From a virus, in the IMG/VR virus record IMGVR_UViG_3300041583_000345, positions 32,001 to 96,000 of that record: 64,000 nt of DNA; one strand, written 5' to 3'. A program made the translations under genes and the position numbers. The notes below the pieces were generated by a model that was not told the DNA's origin, made no database searches, and saw only the letters and a program-made list of their open reading frames with translations. Numbering within the stretch: the first letter of the stretch is position 1; each line of letters begins with the position of its first letter. Below are positions 19,532 through 56,205 of this stretch, in pieces.

Positions 19532-20389
19532 CTACTTACCGTGTTGAGCAAGGATTTGTTTTACGTGTGCTTCTGCTACTTCATATGCAACTACCCCACT
19601 TTCATCTTCATAAGTTACAGGGTCAGGTCTACCTAAAGCTATAAATGCTTCAATACGTTCTACTGAAGAAGCTGATTTGTAGTCGCTATTACCACTTGGG
19701 TAGGGTTTGTAAGAGGTGTTTGTGCGTTTGTAAACTTCATCAAATTCTAGTCCTAGTTCTTTACATAATAATTCTCCGTCTTGTAAAATTGTAAATTTAT
19801 TTCCTTTTAAATAAGGAGTAAAATAACCTACTCGTTCAGCATCCCAATTACCTTCTCTGAAGGCTTTGTCATCTGCATCTCTAAACTCCTGTCTGCAGTC
19901 TGGATAAACTGAAAAGTCTCCCGCATGAATTCCTAAAGCAATATCACAGTTTTCTCCTGTACGGTTTGCTATCGATAATGCCACTGCTTGGGTAATAGAA
20001 GCAAATATTTTATTACGGTTAGGAACAACAGTTTCTTTCATGTTGCTATTTTCATAATGTCCCTCCGGTACATCTTTACCTCCTTCTACTAAAGCTGAAT
20101 CTAGTAAGTCTGCTAATCCGTCTAGTTTAATTTGACGGTAATTAATTGTATTGTAGTTTAACCCCACAATTGTGATTGTCCCTAATTGATCCTGTTCTAT
20201 TCTTTCTACATTACCATTTAGATAGTTAACTAATGATTGAGCTCTTTCTAACTCTACTCTGTGTTTTTGACCGTAGTCGAATGAAATACCTGTTACAGTA
20301 TCATATTCTTTTAATGCTCTAAGTAGTAAAGTGCTACTATCCATTCCTCCTGAAAGGCTAACCACGCAATGTTTTTTTGTTTTACTCAT
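19532..20389 (-). CDS. queC: 7-cyano-7-deazaguanine (preQ0) synthase, Zn-site Cys replaced
   Basis: SLSGGMDSST, FDYGQKH, VVPNRN, GIHAGD..YPDCR. Confidence 0.92.
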   Translation of the reverse strand: MSKTKKHCVVSLSGGMDSSTLLLRALKEYDTVTGISFDYGQKHRVELERAQSLVNYLNGNVERIEQDQLGTITIVGLNYNTINYRQIKLDGLADLLDSALVEGGKDVPEGHYENSNMKETVVPNRNKIFASITQAVALSIANRTGENCDIALGIHAGDFSVYPDCRQEFRDADDKAFREGNWDAERVGYFTPYLKGNKFTILQDGELLCKELGLEFDEVYKRTNTSYKPYPSGNSDYKSASSVERIEAFIALGRPDPVTYEDESGVVAYEVAEAHVKQILAQHGK

Positions 20390-21630: not shown

Positions 21631-22494
21631 TTAAATTAAAGGAAAAATGTCGTAGCCGTATTCTTCTATCCAATCGTATATACTACGTTTATTACCTAAT
21701 TGATACTTATGCTCTAAAAACGTTGAATTTTGTTTATGTAGCTTACTTAATATACGTTCCCTAGTATCGATATCAAAATTAAATGTGGGTTGTTTTATAG
21801 ATTTTCTCTGTGAATGGTCATACAGATGATATATGGGAGTATCCTTATAATTTACTACATCATATCCGTTTGTGTAGGAGCGTAATGTCATATCTAATTC
21901 TTCGAATTGCCAACCGGCATATGGATCGTAACCTACATTTGCTAACCAGTATATGTCGCTGATGTGATACCCACCGGCACCTAATGATCTATAGTAATCG
22001 CCTTTGTTTTCGATTGCTTCAGCGGTGAATCTAAATTTATAATTACAATGAATGTCACTTTTTAAAACGTTTACCATATGTTGGTTGTGCTTGCTATAAG
22101 TATCTACACCATCTTTTGAAGTATACACTTTAGGGTAACAGGTAATTAAGCAATCCCCATCGTAATTATCAACAGCGTCTACCATTATTTTATCCCACCC
22201 CTTATCAAACCTAGTATGAGCATCTATACATAAGTAGTATTTGTGGGATGGTTTTATATATAAATGAGCGTGTGCCCTAACTTGAGTTACGTTTCGTGTT
22301 TTATCTTCTCTTACGTTTATTAATGTTACATTATCTGGGAATTGTGATTGTTGCCACATATCTTCTTCGAAGTCCTGATTATATATTACTATGTCTAAAT
22401 TATTTGGTTCGTTGGCTTTGTCTAATAAATCGTTTACCGTATTAAGTAAGTCATTGTCTAATCGACAAGCTATAAAAACTAATATTGTTTCCAT
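21631..22494 (-). CDS. GT60/Gnt1-like GlcNAc transferase
   Basis: YYLCIDAHTRFDKGWD, LITCYP, FEELDMTLRSYTNGYDV, IYHLY. Confidence 0.75.
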   Translation of the reverse strand: METILVFIACRLDNDLLNTVNDLLDKANEPNNLDIVIYNQDFEEDMWQQSQFPDNVTLINVREDKTRNVTQVRAHAHLYIKPSHKYYLCIDAHTRFDKGWDKIMVDAVDNYDGDCLITCYPKVYTSKDGVDTYSKHNQHMVNVLKSDIHCNYKFRFTAEAIENKGDYYRSLGAGGYHISDIYWLANVGYDPYAGWQFEELDMTLRSYTNGYDVVNYKDTPIYHLYDHSQRKSIKQPTFNFDIDTRERILSKLHKQNSTFLEHKYQLGNKRSIYDWIEEYGYDIFPLI

Positions 22495-23291
22495 TCTGTA
22501 ATTGACTTGTAAAATTTGTTATTAGGAAAATTATCCCATTTTATTTCGTGAAATTTATTTTTATTGAATAGGGGGTCGCAACTATAATGTGCTATGTGGT
22601 GTGATTCTTTTAATTCATTTATGTTTGGGTAATAACAATTTTTACCGTCTACCATTTTAATTTTACTATTGTGACATGCCACGTTAAGCCCATACATTAA
22701 AGCCCACCAGCTATGGCTAGTATTAGGATATTCGTCACTGACTTTGATTGATGTTTCTACTGCTTCGTGGTAGATTTTGTCAAATACTTTTTTCTTTAGT
22801 ATGACATTAAAACCTCCATTCATGTACTGATAATCATTGTGGTGTAAGTATTTGTGAATAATATTTCTATTGTCGCTGTTTACTTTTAAATGCCAATTTT
22901 CGTATGTAGCGTCTACAACTACTTCGTTATCACTAGGAAGGTAACCATCATATTTTTTTAAATGAAATAAATCAGCATCTATTATTTCTAGGTATTCTTC
23001 ATCATCTACATCTCTTGTAACTTGGTAAGCTGCTGTGAATACATTATTAACTATATATCGAGGTTCAGTAAAGTTAAGCATATCTAAAACGCTATCTACT
23101 AGTTTATGTGGTAGGCGTAGCCCCCAATCTAATTCCGTTGTTATTGCGTCGCTTTTATAATTGCGATTTACGATAGGAATTATAGCTTTACTATGAGCAT
23201 CTTCTCCGTACACTTTAAAATGGTTAAATTCGAATAAACTTATTTGCCACTTAAAATGATTTGTTGCTACAGCACAAGGAATACTAATCAT
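22479..23291 (-). CDS. glycosyltransferase, HPAT/SERGT (GT95/96)-like
   Basis: IIDADLFHLK (DxD), WWALMYGLNVAC, HIAHYS. Confidence 0.55.
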   Translation of the reverse strand: MISIPCAVATNHFKWQISLFEFNHFKVYGEDAHSKAIIPIVNRNYKSDAITTELDWGLRLPHKLVDSVLDMLNFTEPRYIVNNVFTAAYQVTRDVDDEEYLEIIDADLFHLKKYDGYLPSDNEVVVDATYENWHLKVNSDNRNIIHKYLHHNDYQYMNGGFNVILKKKVFDKIYHEAVETSIKVSDEYPNTSHSWWALMYGLNVACHNSKIKMVDGKNCYYPNINELKESHHIAHYSCDPLFNKNKFHEIKWDNFPNNKFYKSITEWKQY

Positions 23292-24483
23292 TAATGTAAG
23301 AGTAGTTTTTTAACTTGTAGTGGACATAAAAATTAACATAGTCTTTACCTTCAAATGGTTTTATTCTACCATGCTCACATACTGCTGATTCGTAAAATAC
23401 CATATCTTGTGGTTCGAAGAATATTTCATTTGTTTCGCCGTCATGTCCTTTTATTTGTAGTGCCCAGTCATCACCGAATTCTTTATAGCCGCATCCGCAA
23501 CGTAAATCTTTTGACATCATTATTATAGCACTAATTTGGTGTGTTTCAATTCTATCAGTATGTAAGATTAAACTACTATTTTTATGGTAATTTCTAAACC
23601 CATATATGAATGTTTTTTCTAATTCTTCACCACACCAAGCTTCTAATTTAGGTAATAAGTAATCGTGTATCTTATTTGTTAAATTAGGTATTTCCCATAT
23701 GGGATAAATTGTTGATGAACCGGGTTGAGTATTATCTTTACCGGCATATTCCTCTTTATAACTTTTATCGGCTACACTTATTATTCCTTCAACACAGTCA
23801 TTAAATAGTTTATCATCAAATTTAAATACTTCGAAACCATTTTTTGTTAATTTAGGGAAATCTAATGCTGATGAAAATGTGTGGGATTTTTTAACCATAT
23901 GTTCTTGTGCTAATCTATTGTCTTCTGCGCCGTTCCAATCATTTTCTCTAATCCAAGCAGTAATAATATATTTTTTTCCTTTTATTATGGGTTTACCGGC
24001 ATGTAATACATCATTATTTACTTTACCGTCTATCATGTTATTCCATAGTAAAGCTTTACCTTTAGTAGGTTTAAACGATTGTTTTAAAATAGAAAATTCT
24101 GTTTCACCACCTTCCAAACCATCATTTAAGTAAATCATTAGTGTTTGCGTTCGATTACCTGATGATAAGCAGTGCTGATTATAATGTTCGCCTAAAAAGA
24201 AGTCATAGTGGGGTTTAAATTCCTGCCCTACTTTATATAATTGTCCTTGTAATGCTTCTATTTTGGCTGTTCTAATTCCTAAAGTATTTGCTATTTTTTT
24301 ACTTAGTCTTAACACTACATCATTATCAGCAGGTAAATTACAAGTGGTTGAAGTTCTTGAACTATCAACTACAGCTTTTTTTGTAGCATCAGCTACAGTG
24401 GAAGGTTGATTATTTGCCTTTATTAATTTAATTAAAGCATCACAATCTTGTGTATTTAAAAAATCGTTTAATTCTATAATCAT
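23284..24483 (-). CDS. prolyl 4-hydroxylase-like 2OG-Fe(II) oxygenase, two tandem domains
   Basis: Domain 1: YKVGQEFKPHYD, RTQTLMIYLN, GGETEF, HAGKP, KYIITAWIR; domain 2: LHTD...EHGR. Confidence 0.85.
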   Translation of the reverse strand: MIIELNDFLNTQDCDALIKLIKANNQPSTVADATKKAVVDSSRTSTTCNLPADNDVVLRLSKKIANTLGIRTAKIEALQGQLYKVGQEFKPHYDFFLGEHYNQHCLSSGNRTQTLMIYLNDGLEGGETEFSILKQSFKPTKGKALLWNNMIDGKVNNDVLHAGKPIIKGKKYIITAWIRENDWNGAEDNRLAQEHMVKKSHTFSSALDFPKLTKNGFEVFKFDDKLFNDCVEGIISVADKSYKEEYAGKDNTQPGSSTIYPIWEIPNLTNKIHDYLLPKLEAWCGEELEKTFIYGFRNYHKNSSLILHTDRIETHQISAIIMMSKDLRCGCGYKEFGDDWALQIKGHDGETNEIFFEPQDMVFYESAVCEHGRIKPFEGKDYVNFYVHYKLKNYSYIND

Positions 24484-24652: not shown

Positions 24653-25081
24653 TTACTTAACTGTGTTTGCTTTTACTCTAACTTCATGCCACTTTACTCT
24701 ACCGTCTTCTACCGCTTTTTTTATGTTTTTTTGATGGCCATTCAAAAAAGCTGTCCCACTTTTTACCTCAATGAGATGAACAGTAGTTGTTTCTGGTTTA
24801 TCCAAATCTGTAAAGCCTAAAAAATCAATAGGTTTACCTAAATGATGAGTATTTTCCGGAGGTATAGGGAAAACATCCATAAAGGGTACAAAATTCTCAA
24901 TAGTTAATCCCCACTGCACAGAACCTGATCTTTTTTTAGCATCAGCAGATATTTTGCTTTTCTGTTTATCAAACGATACTTGCTGCTGTATTAATTCTCT
25001 CTTAAGTTTTTTTACTTGTATTATAAGGAATACTACTACACCTAATAGTGCAGCAGATACCAGTATATATAGTATATACAT
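24653..25081 (-). CDS. Holliday-junction-resolvase-like PD-(D/E)XK endonuclease with N-terminal TM helix
   Basis: ENFVPF, GKPIDFLGF, LIEVKSG, AVEDGRVKW. Confidence 0.75.
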   Translation of the reverse strand: MYILYILVSAALLGVVVFLIIQVKKLKRELIQQQVSFDKQKSKISADAKKRSGSVQWGLTIENFVPFMDVFPIPPENTHHLGKPIDFLGFTDLDKPETTTVHLIEVKSGTAFLNGHQKNIKKAVEDGRVKWHEVRVKANTVK

Positions 25082-25096
25082 ACTAATTAATTTAGT

Positions 25097-26812
25097 TTAC
25101 CCATCACAGCTTAAACAATCTTCAGATGTTCTTGATCCTATATCTCCGTTTATTACTGAGTCTGTTCTTAGGTAATATAGTGTTTTTATTCCTAACTTCC
25201 AAGCTTGTTGGTGAACTAGGTTGATAAATCTTGGACTATCTGTTGGATCAAAGGCTAAGTTTAAAGATTGTGTTTGATCAATGTATTTTTGTCTAACTGC
25301 TGCTTGTTCTACCAGAGCAAGTTGGTTTATTTCAGCAAATGTTAAGAATACCTCTTTATCCTCTACTGTCATAATATCTTCAGGTAGATTAGCTACAGAA
25401 CCTCTATCTTTCATGATTTGATCCCAAACTTCTTCTGTATTATGCCCTTTTACGTCTAAATATGACTCTAATGCTGGATTTTTTCTAATAAAAGTTCCTT
25501 TTGCTGAGTTAAAGGTATAAACGTTTGCTGGTACTGGTTCAATTCCTGCTGAAACTCCTCCTGATATAGTGGAATTTGATACTGTTGGTGCGATAGCCAG
25601 TAAGTGACTATTTCTCATTCCAGTTCCTTTGCACCATAACGGCTCTCCATACTCATCTGCTAGTTTTCTTGAAGCTGCTTCTGCTTTATTTTTAATATCC
25701 GAGAATATTTGATGTGTGTACGATGTTGCTGCTATCGAATTGAAAGGTATTCTTTCGTTTTGTAAAAATGTATGCCATCCTAATACTCCTAATCCAAGTG
25801 CTCTTCCTTTTTTAGCAGATCTTGCTGATCTTATCAAAGAATCTCTTCCAGAGGTCTTTGCTAGAAATTCCTCTAGTACTCCATCTAAGAAATAAATTGC
25901 TGTTTCTATCAAATCTGTATTTTTCCATTCGTGCCATTTCGTTAAATTTACTGAGGATAAACAACAAATAAAGGAATGTTCTTCGTCGGTAAATAATGTA
26001 ATTTCCGAACAGATATTTGTCATCGTAACTTCAAGGTTATTTCTCGTATATGCAGGAGGATTGTCATTATTAACGTTATCCTTAAACATAATATAGGGTT
26101 CTCCTGTTTCTACTCTAGACTTAAGTATCTCTACCCATGTCTCCATTGCCTCCGGTACTCTCCTGTCGAGTTTCTCCATAAAGCTATCATCCACTACAAC
26201 GCATTGGTGTAGGTTTAGACACTGTCTATTAGGGTCCCCTTTAGGTCTTCTAATTTGTAAAAATTCTTTAATATCTGGATGATTTATATCTAGGTTAACT
26301 GATGCTGCTCCTCTACGAACTGCGCCTTGGTTAGTTGCTATGATAGTAGAATCGTAAATCTTAGCCCAAGGTATTACACCTTCTGACTGTCCCATTTCTA
26401 AGGTTCCGATTTTTTGACCTCTACCTCTAACTTTAGATAATCCAATACCAACTCCACCTCCTAAGGAAGTCAATCTCATGAGTTCAGCATTGGTCAAGCC
26501 AATACCTCGAATTGAGTCGGGGGTATCAATTCCGAAACATGAGATTGGTAATCCTTTATCAGTTCCTGTATTTGATAGAACAGGTGAGGCTAAATTTAAC
26601 CACCCTTTCCACATATACCTGAAGAATTTTGGTGCTAAATCTGGTCGATCTAGTCTTTTTGCTACCGTATCAGCTACTCTCTTGTATGCTAATTTTGGTG
26701 TTTCATTTGGTAGTAAATACCCTTTTGATATTGTTGCTATTGAAACTTCGTTCATCCATTCCGGATAGTCTTTTCCTGCTTCCCAATTGTAAGTATCTAC
26801 TGGTGTATTCAT
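25097..26812 (-). CDS. nrdA: ribonucleotide reductase class Ia alpha (no ATP cone)
   Basis: ASPVLSN, ISCF, GGGVG, TNICSEI, CCLSS, AIAPT, KTLYYLR, C-terminal CLSC. Confidence 0.95.
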   Translation of the reverse strand: MNTPVDTYNWEAGKDYPEWMNEVSIATISKGYLLPNETPKLAYKRVADTVAKRLDRPDLAPKFFRYMWKGWLNLASPVLSNTGTDKGLPISCFGIDTPDSIRGIGLTNAELMRLTSLGGGVGIGLSKVRGRGQKIGTLEMGQSEGVIPWAKIYDSTIIATNQGAVRRGAASVNLDINHPDIKEFLQIRRPKGDPNRQCLNLHQCVVVDDSFMEKLDRRVPEAMETWVEILKSRVETGEPYIMFKDNVNNDNPPAYTRNNLEVTMTNICSEITLFTDEEHSFICCLSSVNLTKWHEWKNTDLIETAIYFLDGVLEEFLAKTSGRDSLIRSARSAKKGRALGLGVLGWHTFLQNERIPFNSIAATSYTHQIFSDIKNKAEAASRKLADEYGEPLWCKGTGMRNSHLLAIAPTVSNSTISGGVSAGIEPVPANVYTFNSAKGTFIRKNPALESYLDVKGHNTEEVWDQIMKDRGSVANLPEDIMTVEDKEVFLTFAEINQLALVEQAAVRQKYIDQTQSLNLAFDPTDSPRFINLVHQQAWKLGIKTLYYLRTDSVINGDIGSRTSEDCLSCDG

Positions 26813-27621
26813 TTAATTTTGTTTTTGTTGTTTCCGTAATTTATATTCTCTACGTAGTTAATTATAGACCCTTTTAATTTACCTCCTTTTACTGTAGTTC
26901 CTGTGTTTCTATTTCTCTTTAATGTTCCTTCATCGTACTTTTCTAAAGCTTCCATTAAGCTATGTAGTAGTTCTTTGCTCTTGTCTGGGTGTATAATTGT
27001 ATAGGTTCCTTTCGATTTTCCGTAATTACCTGCTAACTCTCCTGGTCGTTTTACTCCCCACTGTGAGCTCTTCTCTCCTGTGTGGTTTTTTATGAACTTT
27101 TCAAAATACTCCTTCCGTGTCATACTGCCTTTAGTCTGCTTACAGGAATACACTCTTTTTTCTATAGCTTCTCGTGACTGTTGGTTTCCGGAGTTACATA
27201 ATTCTCGTATCCTTGCAAGTCCTTTTTCTGAGTGGTATTTCCCGTTGTACTTAGCTTTTTTTGTTTCTTTTGCCTTATCTACGGTTTCAGTATTGAACAT
27301 TGGATTTTTCTCTAGAAAAAGCTTTCTCCGTTTTTCTACAGGGTAGGCTATTAAGCACAATTTTTTTCTTTGTAACTCCCCCTCTTCTGTTTTACCTGAT
27401 AGTAGCAACCATGCTACTTTATCTTGCATTTTCCCTAACCACTTGTACCGTATCCAATGTGCTGTTGCATGGTTTTTTATTGATAGTCTTACTAAGTTAG
27501 ATTCTTCGTTGGTTCCTTGTTCATATCTTGGAATAATGTGATGTTTATGTGTACCCCCTATTACTTTATTACTTTTTCTCTCCTCTAGGAATTTTTTATA
27601 AATTTCTTGCCAGTTTACCAT
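26809..27621 (-). mobile_element. free-standing HNH homing endonuclease between nrdB and nrdA
   Basis: HKHHIIPRYEQGTNEESNLVRLSIKNHATAH; basic C-terminal DNA-binding region. Confidence 0.8.
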
Positions 27622-50930: not shown

Positions 50931-52337
50931 TTAATGGGTCTTTCCTTTTAGTGTATTCTCTATTCTTGTCCACTCGTATTTATAATTTCCGCAGTCCCAT
51001 ACCCTATGGTAACCCCTATCTAACATTATTTCATATTCAGACATATTTGGATCTCCTCCTTGCTGTACAAGTTTATGTTTTTGAAACTGAAATCTTGAAT
51101 AACGTATTTTGGACTTAACATAGAAGTACCCGGGCACTGTTGGTTTCAGTTCGGACATTCCTAATGTACTATATAATGCACCGTTACTCCAATCTCGGTT
51201 AGCATACGAAATTATACGTTCCGGTGTATACGTCTTTATAAAGTAGGAGTATAGTTTTGATGCTCCTCCTATTACTGCAGTGTTTAACTTATTACAGAAT
51301 CTAAGTAGTTCGTACTCTCCTTTCTTAGCTACTTGTCCTGTAGCTGCTCTTAATGAAGAAAATGTCATGACACTTACTAGTTCTTCCCCTGTAAAAAGTC
51401 CTATACGTATTTTAGAGATTCCGCTACCCTGTAAATGGTTATTTCCTAGAAACGTATTCGCTTCCTTATAGGTGATTTCACGTACCTCTGTCTTCCTTGC
51501 ATAGATTCTATCTGCTGTCTTACCTAATACGTTAGCTATCACCGATCTTACTATTGCTTCTTTCTGAATCCAATCTGCTTCCCATATGTGTATTAATCTA
51601 TACCCTTTATCTGCTGCTGCTAATTGCTTACTTAGGTGGTACTTTCTATCTTTAAATAAATCACTATGCCAGTAACTCCCGTTGTACTCTATAGCTACTT
51701 TTTCTGACTCTACTACTATATCCAGCTCTAATCCACTCAATATACCCCTATTGCTCTGCTCTACTTCAAAACCTAAACCCTCTACCATCTTACACACTTC
51801 TGCTTCTCCCCTACTTGGACCTGAGCTGTGCCATGTTCCCCTGCCTTCCTGCATTCTCTTTATAGCAGCTGCTCTCATGGTCTCTCTCTGTTCCTTACTG
51901 TTCTCCCTGTATCCTGGTCTGTGCTGATGATGCCCTGCTAACATAGTTCTTGAATAAGCTACCTCCCCTTTTTCATTCTTACCATGTCTTATCAATCTAA
52001 CATCTTCTCCACAGCCACAGGAGCAGGTTGGAGGTGTTCCATTAAAGAAGTACTTTATAAAATAGTCTTGCCAACTTATACCATGTGTATGTATATGATG
52101 AAGTAACTGCTTATGTGATATTTGAGACTCTTTACAGATTTCACACTCTATTCCGCTCCCTTCCCGAAGTTTTTGTGCGGTCAAGTGTTTCTTTCTAAAT
52201 TCTCCAAATGTTTTCGAATATTCTTCTGAGGACATTTTGTCATGCTTATGGTAGAGGTGGCTCCCCATCCCGGAAGCTGTTAAACTTATTTTACATATTT
52301 TACAGGTAATCGGTGTACTATCTTTTTCTCTACTCAT
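50931..52337 (-). mobile_element. Hef-like homing endonuclease with Zn-finger N-terminus
   Basis: CKIC/CEIC/CSCGC motifs; ELDI...AIEYNGSYWH, IHIWEADW, RVWDCG. Confidence 0.75.
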
Positions 52338-55228: not shown

Positions 55229-55996
55229 TTATGAATCTAATTTAGAAAATCCATTGGGTACAACTCCTTCACATATAAGTGTTGCTACAATTGGTGATAC
55301 TACTGAACCTACAAATATACCTACACCTGCTGGTGTTGATAATGCTGCTGTTGCGTATATTGGATTTGCTTTACCTACTACATTAGTAAGTACTCTTGTT
55401 AGTAATGGTTTATCACATTTTCCGTTAACACCTGGTATTAAAAATATACCTTCAGCTAACAATTTACCAATTACAGTTGATACTGTCATCATTGCCACTT
55501 TTTGTCCTACTGTTGCCATTGCCGCTAACATAGTTGCACTAATTGTAGTTGATGTTACAGTACCGGGGTCAGCGGGTGCGGGTTTTGGTGTGAAGTATAT
55601 AACACATCCGGTTGTTAGTGCCATATTCAATCCAATGTAACAAGCATTTTCATCTAACCAATCAATAGCAGCTGTTACTCCTTCTTCAACTACTTCCAAT
55701 CCTTCTTTAGAAAATTCAATTGCCTGTGCACTACCTTCTTTCCATACTGTAGATGTCACATCAATACCTTGTTTGGCCGCTTCAGTTGTATTCTTAGCAA
55801 CGACATCTGTTGTATGTACTACGGCTTTTGTTGCATCCTTATATATATTCTCAGTAGTTTTAACCACATTATCAACTTCATCCTTAATTATATCAATGGG
55901 GTTAGGTATTTTAGGAATTGGGTTAGGTATGTTTGGTATTGGGTTAGGTATTTTAGGTATTTTAGGTACTTTTATTTTGTTTAATGGATTCTTCAT
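55229..55996 (-). CDS. hypothetical protein: Pro-rich repeats, amphipathic repeats, hydrophobic C-half
   Basis: KIPKIPNPIPNIPNPIPKIPNP; several predicted TM segments. Confidence 0.65.
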   Translation of the reverse strand: MKNPLNKIKVPKIPKIPNPIPNIPNPIPKIPNPIDIIKDEVDNVVKTTENIYKDATKAVVHTTDVVAKNTTEAAKQGIDVTSTVWKEGSAQAIEFSKEGLEVVEEGVTAAIDWLDENACYIGLNMALTTGCVIYFTPKPAPADPGTVTSTTISATMLAAMATVGQKVAMMTVSTVIGKLLAEGIFLIPGVNGKCDKPLLTRVLTNVVGKANPIYATAALSTPAGVGIFVGSVVSPIVATLICEGVVPNGFSKLDS

Positions 55997-56001
55997 AATT
56001 A

Positions 56002-56205
56002 TTATTTATTTCTTTTATTATTGTTCATACCGAAATAAGTGCCCACTATAGCCACTAATCCAGTAATTGTCACTTGTAAAAGGTGTATTATGTTTTCGTC
56101 TATAGGTCTACTATCTTCTAATGCAATGTAGAAATCTCCTATTACTATAATTACTAGTAATATCATTATACCTGTAACCAATATTAATACAACTTTTTCT
56201 TTCAT
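56002..56205 (-). CDS. small two-TM membrane protein
   Basis: 67 aa, two hydrophobic helices, basic C-terminus. Confidence 0.65.
   Translation of the reverse strand: MKEKVVLILVTGIMILLVIIVIGDFYIALEDSRPIDENIIHLLQVTITGLVAIVGTYFGMNNNKRNK

Follow-up and report, generated by a model that had tools for sequence, protein, structure and literature searches.

A putative hydroxyproline-glycosylation cassette in an uncultured Flavobacterium-type phage and its association with proline-repeat virion proteins in related phages

Glycans linked to hydroxyproline (Hyp) are, to our knowledge, regarded as a eukaryotic speciality, found on the cell-wall proteins and peptide hormones of plants and on the protist protein Skp1. 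Here we describe a phage cassette of three genes whose products probably hydroxylate prolines in the cytoplasm and then attach O-linked glycans, the acceptors being proline-repeat proteins of the phage. It lies in a 64,000-nucleotide stretch of DNA (hereafter the window), which comprises bases 32001-96000 of a 121.9 kb IMG/VR virus record with an estimated completeness of 74%. The three genes encode a two-domain Fe(II)/2-oxoglutarate (2OG) dioxygenase, a soluble glycosyltransferase (GT) resembling the HPAT enzymes of plants, and a GT of the GT60 type.

Among the closest described systems is the extensin/arabinogalactan-protein pathway of plants and green algae. The cassette shares with it a prolyl 4-hydroxylase (P4H, PF13640) and an HPAT-homologous GT-A enzyme (GT95, PF23452) with a DxD-type motif. 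Plant arabinogalactan-protein glycomodules are non-contiguous repeats of Pro with Ser, Thr, Ala or Val (PMC8012813, PMC4908140), and the likely substrates of the phage enzymes are repeats of the same kind. However, plant HPAT is a type II, Golgi-anchored enzyme with UDP-L-arabinofuranose as donor, whereas the phage enzyme is soluble, has about 270 amino acids (aa) and would act in the bacterial cytoplasm. Furthermore, the phage hydroxylase is a fusion of two domains, and the phage genes are adjacent, overlapping or fused. In the second system, that of protist Skp1, a cytoplasmic PHD-type hydroxylase, PhyA, acts first, and then Gnt1 (GT60) adds GlcNAc to Hyp143. The cassette likewise combines a soluble, putatively cytoplasmic and PHD-like hydroxylase domain with a PF11397/GT60 enzyme bearing a DxH motif; but Skp1 is a regulatory target modified at a single site and is absent from bacteria, whereas the proteins linked to the phage genes carry long proline repeats, and the phage adds a collagen-type P4H domain and an HPAT-like GT. 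The third system is viral. The P4H of PBCV-1 (vCPH, 5c5t), which belongs to the same Pfam family, is active on (Pro-Ala-Pro-Lys)n peptides according to Eriksson et al. 1999 as cited in PMC7019647, and viral open reading frames (ORFs) with proline repeats are its presumed substrates; the host of that virus, however, is a eukaryotic alga, and no dedicated Hyp-glycosyltransferases are known to be linked to the PBCV-1 enzyme.

Two further phage systems invite comparison. Mycobacteriophages carry GT genes among their structural genes that are thought to decorate virion proteins (PMC11256854), but there the hydroxylase step and the proline-repeat acceptor are missing and the GT families are different. 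Clusters for sugar hypermodification of phage DNA also place a 2OG dioxygenase next to GTs. They combine a TET/JBP-type oxygenase with a C5-methyltransferase/5mYOX or a ThyS homologue, and with a JGT-like GT-A or a T4-like GT-B enzyme (PMC8256090; bioRxiv 10.1101/2023.12.21.572611), whereas the oxygenase described here is of P4H/PHD type, the GTs belong to other families with other motifs, and neither a methyltransferase partner nor one of ThyS type was found in the record. The phage combination thus differs from the plant, protist and chlorovirus systems in its double hydroxylase, its minimal soluble transferases and its adjacent, overlapping or fused genes, and also in its setting in the bacterial cytoplasm and its physical linkage to repeat-bearing virion proteins. 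A search of full-text literature found no paper on a phage HPAT-like enzyme, on Hyp-linked glycans in phages or bacteria, or on a crAss-like prolyl hydroxylase, which is not proof of absence. What is newly seen here is that the cassette adjoins genes for (Pro-Thr/Val/Ser/Ala)n virion proteins in many related phages.

The first gene of the cassette (23284..24483, minus strand) codes for the 399-aa dioxygenase P0003, recognized by its ORF, by PF13640 and by phrog_61. PF13640 covers residues 79-179 with 57.4 bits against a cut-off of 27. When the N-terminal domain (residues 1-182; 23938..24483, minus strand) was compared with all solved structures in the PDB by phmmer, peptidyl-prolyl 4-hydroxylases were its only significant relatives: those of Bacillus anthracis (5iax/3itq/5hv0, E ~2e-26), human C-P4H alpha-2 (7zsc, E 2e-18), Chlamydomonas (2jig, E 9e-17) and PBCV-1 (5c5t, E 4e-16). 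In the alignment with the B. anthracis enzyme, H92-Y-D94, H161 and K171 fall on the residues that bind the metal and 2OG, and the 2OG-binding lysine K171 lies ten residues past the second histidine. By its sequence, this domain is a member of the collagen/plant/chlorovirus-type prolyl 4-hydroxylase family and is predicted to have that activity.

The C-terminal domain (residues 200-399; 23287..23886, minus strand) is a second double-stranded beta-helix, as indicated by alignments, an AF2 model, Foldseek and VIA-align. Alignments of 20-22 homologues show H308-x-D310...H371 to be invariant and K390 nearly so. No Pfam family matched residues 200-399 at E<0.01, and a profile of 22 sequences found no solved relative in the PDB. 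The AF2 model (pLDDT 93.3) gave as top Foldseek matches PHD2, Trichoplax PHD, Dictyostelium PhyA, Pseudomonas PPHD and OGFOD1 (E 8e-8 to 1e-6, TM ~0.64), and these prolyl hydroxylase types (PHD2, PhyA, PPHD or OGFOD1) made up nearly all of the top 30. VIA-align, which is independent of Foldseek, returned Z 15.4 to both PPHD and Trichoplax PHD, and TET/JBP enzymes were absent from the top 50 fold matches. The modelled fold favours a prolyl hydroxylase, short of proof, and we do not file the domain as a member of the PHD family, since no sequence profile places it there.

The second gene (22479..23291, minus strand) codes for P0002, a 270-aa GT-A enzyme which we place in the GT95 superfamily from the PF23452 matches of its homologues, from hhalign and from an AF2 model. 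Taken alone, P0002 has no match in Pfam, PHROGs, NCBIfam or the sequences of the PDB, and none to PF23452 (HPAT) even at E<=1. Among 32 aligned homologues, 19 match PF23452, the best with E 5e-13. With 1.84 billion representative proteins as the target, a profile of the family (A1) retrieved no more than 90 clusters, and it reaches at E 1e-9 a 410-aa protein that itself scores 546 bits on PF23452. Comparison of the family with HPAT proteins by hhalign gave a probability of 99.1% and E 5.6e-19 over 229 columns, with an acidic motif, W-x-x-E/M-M-Y-G and H-Y...F-D-K in register; compared with plant HPAT, however, the phage family is only remotely similar (16% identity) and P0002 falls below the Pfam threshold. 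The acidic motif D105-x-D107 of P0002 is invariant among homologues. The model (pLDDT 95.8) has a GT-A fold with retaining GT6/GT8 enzymes as nearest solved structures, and fold searches of BFVD and the PDB gave generic GT-A matches only. The protein begins at its first beta-strand, with no N-terminal hydrophobic segment visible. By sequence comparison, the family belongs to GT95, the plant HPAT family, as a distant branch. It is also overwhelmingly viral: it comprises 67 clusters at 90% identity, it is found in at least 137 IMG/VR contigs, its nearest clusters in a protein atlas belong to Uroviricota, and prokaryote genomes (one each of 185,579 species) contain only 11 loci. The few cellular genes lie on contigs of metagenome-assembled genomes of Pyrinomonadaceae and Gammaproteobacteria (L193-L195, L198; L196/L197/L199/L201), and some are fusions of 650-680 aa, probably of the HPAT-like + JmjC type also seen in P0102.

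The third gene (21631..22494, minus strand) codes for P0001, a 287-aa protein assigned from Pfam and invariant columns. PF11397 ('GlcNAc'), which we take to correspond to CAZy GT60, matches P0001 with 91.4 bits against a cut-off of 21 (E 1e-25) and is annotated in all 20 of 20 homologues; the motif D91-x-H93 (DxH) is invariant across 16 aligned sequences. A sequence comparison of P0001 with the PDB returned no significant match. The characterized GT60 members are Gnt1 and the trypanosome polypeptide alpha-GlcNAc transferase; the former transfers GlcNAc onto Hyp143 of Skp1, and the latter uses Thr as its acceptor. P0001 is a member of this family and is predicted to be a HexNAc-type transferase. 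No membrane anchor is evident in the sequence of any of the three cassette proteins, nor a signal peptide in that of the oxygenase, and NCBIfam has no model for the oxygenase, the HPAT-like or the GT60-type protein.

Neighbouring genes of the cassette overlap, by the 8 nt ATGATTAG at the boundary between oxygenase and HPAT-like gene and by 16 nt at the next; such stop-start overlaps are the usual sign of translational coupling. The same arrangement recurs elsewhere. In most of 80 IMG/VR loci kept from 137 relatives, a gene for the two-domain oxygenase lies directly upstream of the HPAT-like gene, usually overlapping it, and the oxygenases that precede HPAT-like genes elsewhere are 41-47% identical to the window enzyme over its full length. 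In one subgroup the C-terminal domain alone precedes the HPAT-like gene, as a 194-aa gene, and in some other loci a P4H-type gene only is found there. A GT60 gene follows downstream as well in about 15 of the 80 loci. Single-linkage clustering of flanking genes, used to count independent contexts, put 59 loci into one component and gave no information on this number. Furthermore, GT60 and HPAT-like domains are joined in a single chain in four clusters (P0099, P0103, P0108, P0116), and other single-chain fusions combine the HPAT-like domain with a JmjC/Cupin_8 hydroxylase or with a GDSL esterase. Variants of the cassette include an NDP-sugar epimerase/dehydratase between the oxygenase and HPAT-like genes, added SGNH esterases, and an added DegT aminotransferase together with a GNAT acetyltransferase. 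The conserved order, the fusions and these sugar-nucleotide and tailoring genes together indicate that the cassette genes work together.

The third position of the cassette varies. In crAss-like cassettes that lack GT60, a conserved third overlapping gene of about 270 aa (L005:6813-7640, L013:6807-7613, L024:6807-7616) shows no similarity to GT60 or to any Pfam family and may encode another transferase. The cultured cyanophage S-SCSM1 of Synechococcus (L090, MK867354.2:102203-104620) has three genes in a row, one for a 2OG oxygenase, one with the annotation 'GDP-fucose protein O-fucosyltransferase' and one for a homologue of the C-terminal domain, so that the middle gene is flanked by both oxygenases; this trio may be another module of oxygenase and protein glycosyltransferase.

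A preliminary description of this DNA, made from the sequence alone, had named three overlapping genes for a two-domain prolyl-4-hydroxylase-like oxygenase, a GT95/96-like and a GT60/Gnt1-like transferase, and had judged the oxygenase motifs closer to protein P4Hs than to TET/JBP. The genes are real, their ORFs and junction overlaps being visible and their order recurring in many unrelated contigs. All three family assignments hold in view of the Pfam, profile-profile and PDB matches: PF13640 in the N-terminal half of the oxygenase and a second oxygenase domain with intact HxD...H in its C-terminal half; PF23452 and hhalign for gene 2, whose GT95-like label is good at the level of the family; and, for gene 3, PF11397 far above its cut-off with an invariant DxH. 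The P4H relatives in the PDB and the PHD-type fold matches, with no TET/JBP enzyme in the top 50, bear out the judgement on the oxygenase.

A pointer to the substrate comes from the genes around related cassettes. All ORFs of the fetched loci were scanned for proline repeats, defined as at least 12 Pro within 25 residues. A proline-repeat protein is encoded on the cassette strand in 39 of 88 loci, and in 29 of these 88 its gene is immediately upstream of the cassette. The tracts alternate strictly (PTPTPT, PVPVPV, PSPTPSPT, PSPVPSPV) in runs of up to 158 residues, in proteins from 130 to 1170 residues long, several of which bear a crAss-like muzzle C-terminal domain or match virion-structural PHROGs. 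On crAss-like contigs the cassette itself is located within the muzzle/tail module. As a control, 77 further crAss-like tail modules were fetched by homology to the muzzle-domain protein only. Fifteen of them carry an oxygenase, HPAT-like or GT60 gene, and 14 of these have a repeat, the single repeat-free module being cut at the start of the oxygenase; none of the 62 modules without oxygenase, HPAT-like and GT60 genes has one (Fisher p = 2e-14), two of the 62 reaching exactly 10 Pro. Likewise, HPAT-like loci whose upstream sequence extends over at least 3 kb show repeats in 30 of 50 cases when an oxygenase is present and in 0 of 17 when it is missing; clustered at 70% identity, the same loci give 8 clusters that have both oxygenase and repeats, 9 that have the oxygenase alone, 7 that have neither and 0 that have repeats alone. 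Around some bacterial HPAT-like loci, proline-repeat ORFs with PARPPV, GKPPVGRPPV or PKPPSPS units lie 2-5 kb away, a weaker observation because these genomes are G+C-rich. Since the two-domain enzyme and the HPAT-like gene stand beside repeat virion proteins in many phages, their usual substrate looks like a repeat protein. Family membership, intact catalytic motifs, coupled genes, fusions and synteny with proline-repeat virion proteins are all direct observations.

From these observations we infer a chemistry, an order of steps, a set of sugars and a biological role. The cassette would be one translationally coupled protein-modification module operating in the host cytoplasm. In a first step, the dioxygenase would use O2 and 2-oxoglutarate to turn peptidyl-proline into hydroxyproline, its collagen-P4H-like and PHD-like catalytic domains probably serving different sequence contexts or ring positions. 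The HPAT-like GT-A enzyme would then attach a first sugar, either at the new hydroxyl or at a neighbouring Ser/Thr, and in a third step the GT60-type enzyme would add a HexNAc-type sugar to Hyp or Thr, or extend the first sugar. In many relatives, the target would be a long (Pro-Thr/Val/Ser/Ala)n stretch within a tail or muzzle protein whose gene adjoins the cassette, and the product an extensin- or mucin-like glycosylated polyproline-II rod or linker on the virion, which may provide stiffness, protease resistance, adhesion or shielding.

Several points weigh against this reading. The crAss-like modules with a cassette gene are 64-86% identical to the query and those without at most 63%, so that the positives, being the closest relatives of the query, may form one clade and represent few independent events. 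The fold scores of the C-terminal domain barely exceed those of non-prolyl oxygenases (Z 15.4 as against 14.5 to HalB and 12.8 to ALKBH7); VIA-align also gave Z 15.6 to an uncharacterized oxygenase, and several small-molecule or AlkB-type enzymes fall at Z 12-14.5. The division of labour proposed between the two GTs is a guess, because both families normally initiate glycans. Hydroxyproline was reportedly not detected in PBCV-1 virions, according to the reference list of a review. Finally, the phage of the window does not show the association seen in its relatives. Here the cassette is outside the structural module, among nucleotide-metabolism and early-type genes between nrdA and thioredoxin/QueC, and in the freshwater L002-type phage it lies beside genes for GTP cyclohydrolase I, dCTP deaminase and DNA polymerase; in both it occupies a DNA-metabolism region, and the available records of both contain no (Pro-X)6 repeat. 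Such a repeat is absent from the window's record and from three near-identical records, and the one proline repeat that is present, like the leucine-rich repeat (LRR) proteins, also occurs in a relative without the cassette.

That one repeat, PKIPKIPNPIPNIPNPIPKIPNP (55892..55966, minus strand), was found by a proline-density scan at the N-terminus of a 255-aa protein (55229-55996). This IPNP/IPK stretch has the highest proline density, and is the only (P-x/xx)5+ run, across the 122 kb; beyond it, neither (Pro-X)6 nor collagen-like Gly-X-Y repeats were found in the window's record or the near-identical records, and none of the small ORFs around the cassette is proline-rich. The preliminary description had read the cassette as a system for hydroxyproline glycosylation of proteins and had named as candidate substrates the IPNP/IPK repeats and the SLPQ motifs of the LRR proteins. 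The fusions and the link to (Pro-X)n virion proteins in relatives strengthen the general reading; the comparison with relatives supports neither of the substrates named for this phage. Homologues of the 255-aa protein have an N-terminus that is either proline-rich or made of (TVAKETTxAAN)n. Relative G004 (138.7 kb, 85% complete) combines the proline-rich form with the absence of any HPAT-like gene, oxygenase homologue or PF13640 gene; its nrdA-QueC interval is intact and filled by other genes, among them the homologue of the 255-aa protein. Conversely, relative G006 has the proline-free form yet carries two small oxygenase genes of PF13640 type in tandem (173 and 183 aa; L203/L204, G006:58033-58790), without an HPAT-like gene; a weaker third PF13640-type gene is also found there. 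The IPNP/IPK protein is therefore kept as a weak, unsupported candidate. The LRR paralogues were rejected, as they are present in the cassette-less G004 and absent from the cassette-bearing fragment G001, so that no correlation exists. The substrate in this phage may be encoded in the missing quarter of its genome, or it may be a host protein.

The 255-aa protein has features of its own, a variable low-complexity N-terminus and a hydrophobic, Cys-containing C-terminal half. Its gene and a small upstream gene (56002-56205, minus strand) move as a unit, which lies here between the prohead protease and capsid genes; in G004 (L189, G004:99000-114000) the pair is located downstream of nrdA, where a GH19 endolysin and a holin are its neighbours, an adjacency that suggests a role of the protein in lysis or at the membrane.

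In the first alternative the chemistry is the same and the target differs: a host protein, or a phage protein without repeats, would be modified at one or a few of its prolines, which would serve as a switch for regulation or takeover. There are precedents for such targets: protists modify Skp1, Pseudomonas PPHD acts on EF-Tu, and OGFOD1 acts on ribosomal uS12. The position of the cassette among early-type genes between nrdA and thioredoxin/QueC fits such a switch, as does the lack of a (Pro-X)n protein in the record; the best folds for the C-terminal domain include PPHD complexed with EF-Tu, Dictyostelium PhyA and OGFOD1/Tpa1, and the characterized PhyA/Gnt1 pathway couples a PHD-type hydroxylase to a GT60 enzyme. 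However, a similar two-domain enzyme (46% identical) and HPAT-like gene adjoin proline-repeat virion proteins in many phages, no host target can be named, and a repeat protein may be encoded in the 26% that is missing from a record only 74% complete. We regard this alternative as unlikely.

A second alternative places the chemistry on acceptors other than protein: the GTs would remodel surface polysaccharide or lipid-linked glycans of the host, for seroconversion or superinfection exclusion, or would assemble a small glycoconjugate, and the oxygenase would act on free proline, a sugar or a lipid. Distant HPAT-like genes that lack the oxygenase do lie in glycan-type neighbourhoods (GH130, GT2), some cassette variants contain sugar-nucleotide enzymes, the GT-A fold is uninformative about the acceptor, and the small-molecule oxygenases HalB, SnoK and EvdO2 are among the top fold matches of the C-terminal domain. 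Yet the N-terminal domain matches peptidyl-prolyl 4-hydroxylases at E ~2e-26, and characterized members of both GT families (GT60 and GT95), as the family descriptions have it, modify polypeptides. The three proteins are without evident membrane anchors, and the tight link to proline-repeat proteins would be left unexplained. We consider modification of a non-protein acceptor quite improbable.

Hypermodification of DNA or nucleotides, in which the dioxygenase would oxidize a base and the two GTs glycosylate it, as with 5mYOX/TET plus GT or base J, is the most serious published analogue, since phage clusters that glycosylate cytosines by means of a dioxygenase and GTs are well documented (PMC8256090; bioRxiv 10.1101/2023.12.21.572611). 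The cassette also adjoins ribonucleotide reductase, thioredoxin and QueC (and in L002 the three nucleotide and DNA-synthesis genes named above). Nevertheless, this alternative is disfavoured and in our view very improbable. The oxygenase is of P4H + PHD type without TET/JBP among its top 50 folds, the record contains neither a ThyA-like nor a TGT/DpdA gene, and crAss-like cassettes are inside the tail module. The GTs are PF11397 and HPAT-like with DxH and DxD, whereas in the published DNA systems the GT-A enzymes are of a JGT-like type with R...DDD...EDY/F motifs. The ThyA-like gene (PF00303) was absent from the 74%-complete record in a search whose controls were positive; Tet_JBP (PF12851) had no match in the record in a search whose controls were equally silent.

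The record as a whole has about 35% G+C and 25 tRNA genes, with nearly all genes on the minus strand. It derives from an uncultured Flavobacterium-type phage whose nearest cultured relative is Flavobacterium phage vB_FspM_immuto; the major capsid proteins of the two share 68% identity. Near-DNA and tblastn searches of cultured phages found no counterpart of the cassette in vB_FspM_immuto and, over all cultured phages, zero DNA matches and zero homologues of either GT, the oxygenase giving single-domain matches only. Upstream of the cassette are a Holliday-junction-resolvase-like endonuclease (24653-25081) and then ribonucleotide reductase; downstream follow thioredoxin, a small gene, QueC and four LRR paralogues. 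The QueC homologue (19532-20389, minus strand) may relate to the large tRNA set of this phage; 7-deazaguanine modification of DNA is not evident, since QueC is present but a TGT/DpdA-family gene was not found in the 122-kb record. The nrdA gene of the window is intact; an HNH homing endonuclease gene (26809-27621) lies on its upstream side and the resolvase-like endonuclease on its downstream side. In G004, nrdA is split into two ORFs (L187/L188, G004:108664-111893), and the intervening piece includes a 214-aa ORF that resembles the window gene at 12986-13666. The nrdA region is a hotspot for mobile endonucleases. A further homing-endonuclease-like gene of 468 aa (50931-52337, minus strand; phrog_3339/559, with a weak Mom-like match) lies directly downstream of the major capsid gene.

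Hydroxylation and O-glycosylation of proline-repeat proteins, the reading that we prefer, leads to a broader proposal, for which we see about even chances: that tailed phages of marine and freshwater bacteria carry a self-contained cytoplasmic toolkit of double P4H/PHD hydroxylase, GT95-like and GT60-like transferases that turns the (Pro-X)n segments of their tail or muzzle proteins into Hyp-O-glycosylated, extensin- or mucin-like rods, the first such system outside eukaryotes. If so, Hyp-glycan chemistry would also operate in the bacterial cytoplasm, and the phage HPAT-like family would be a candidate relative, or source, of the plant GT95 enzymes. The co-location of enzyme and repeat-protein genes offers ready-made enzyme-substrate pairs, and the phage proteins would be minimal enzymes for the production of Hyp-glycopeptides in E. 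coli. For the phages themselves, the rods would be a new class of virion decoration and would explain the long Pro-Thr and Pro-Val tracts of tail proteins, and a function could be given to part of the large number of '2OG-Fe(II) oxygenase' genes that are still unexplained in aquatic phages. The effect of virion glycan coats on adsorption, stability or marine grazing would then become testable.

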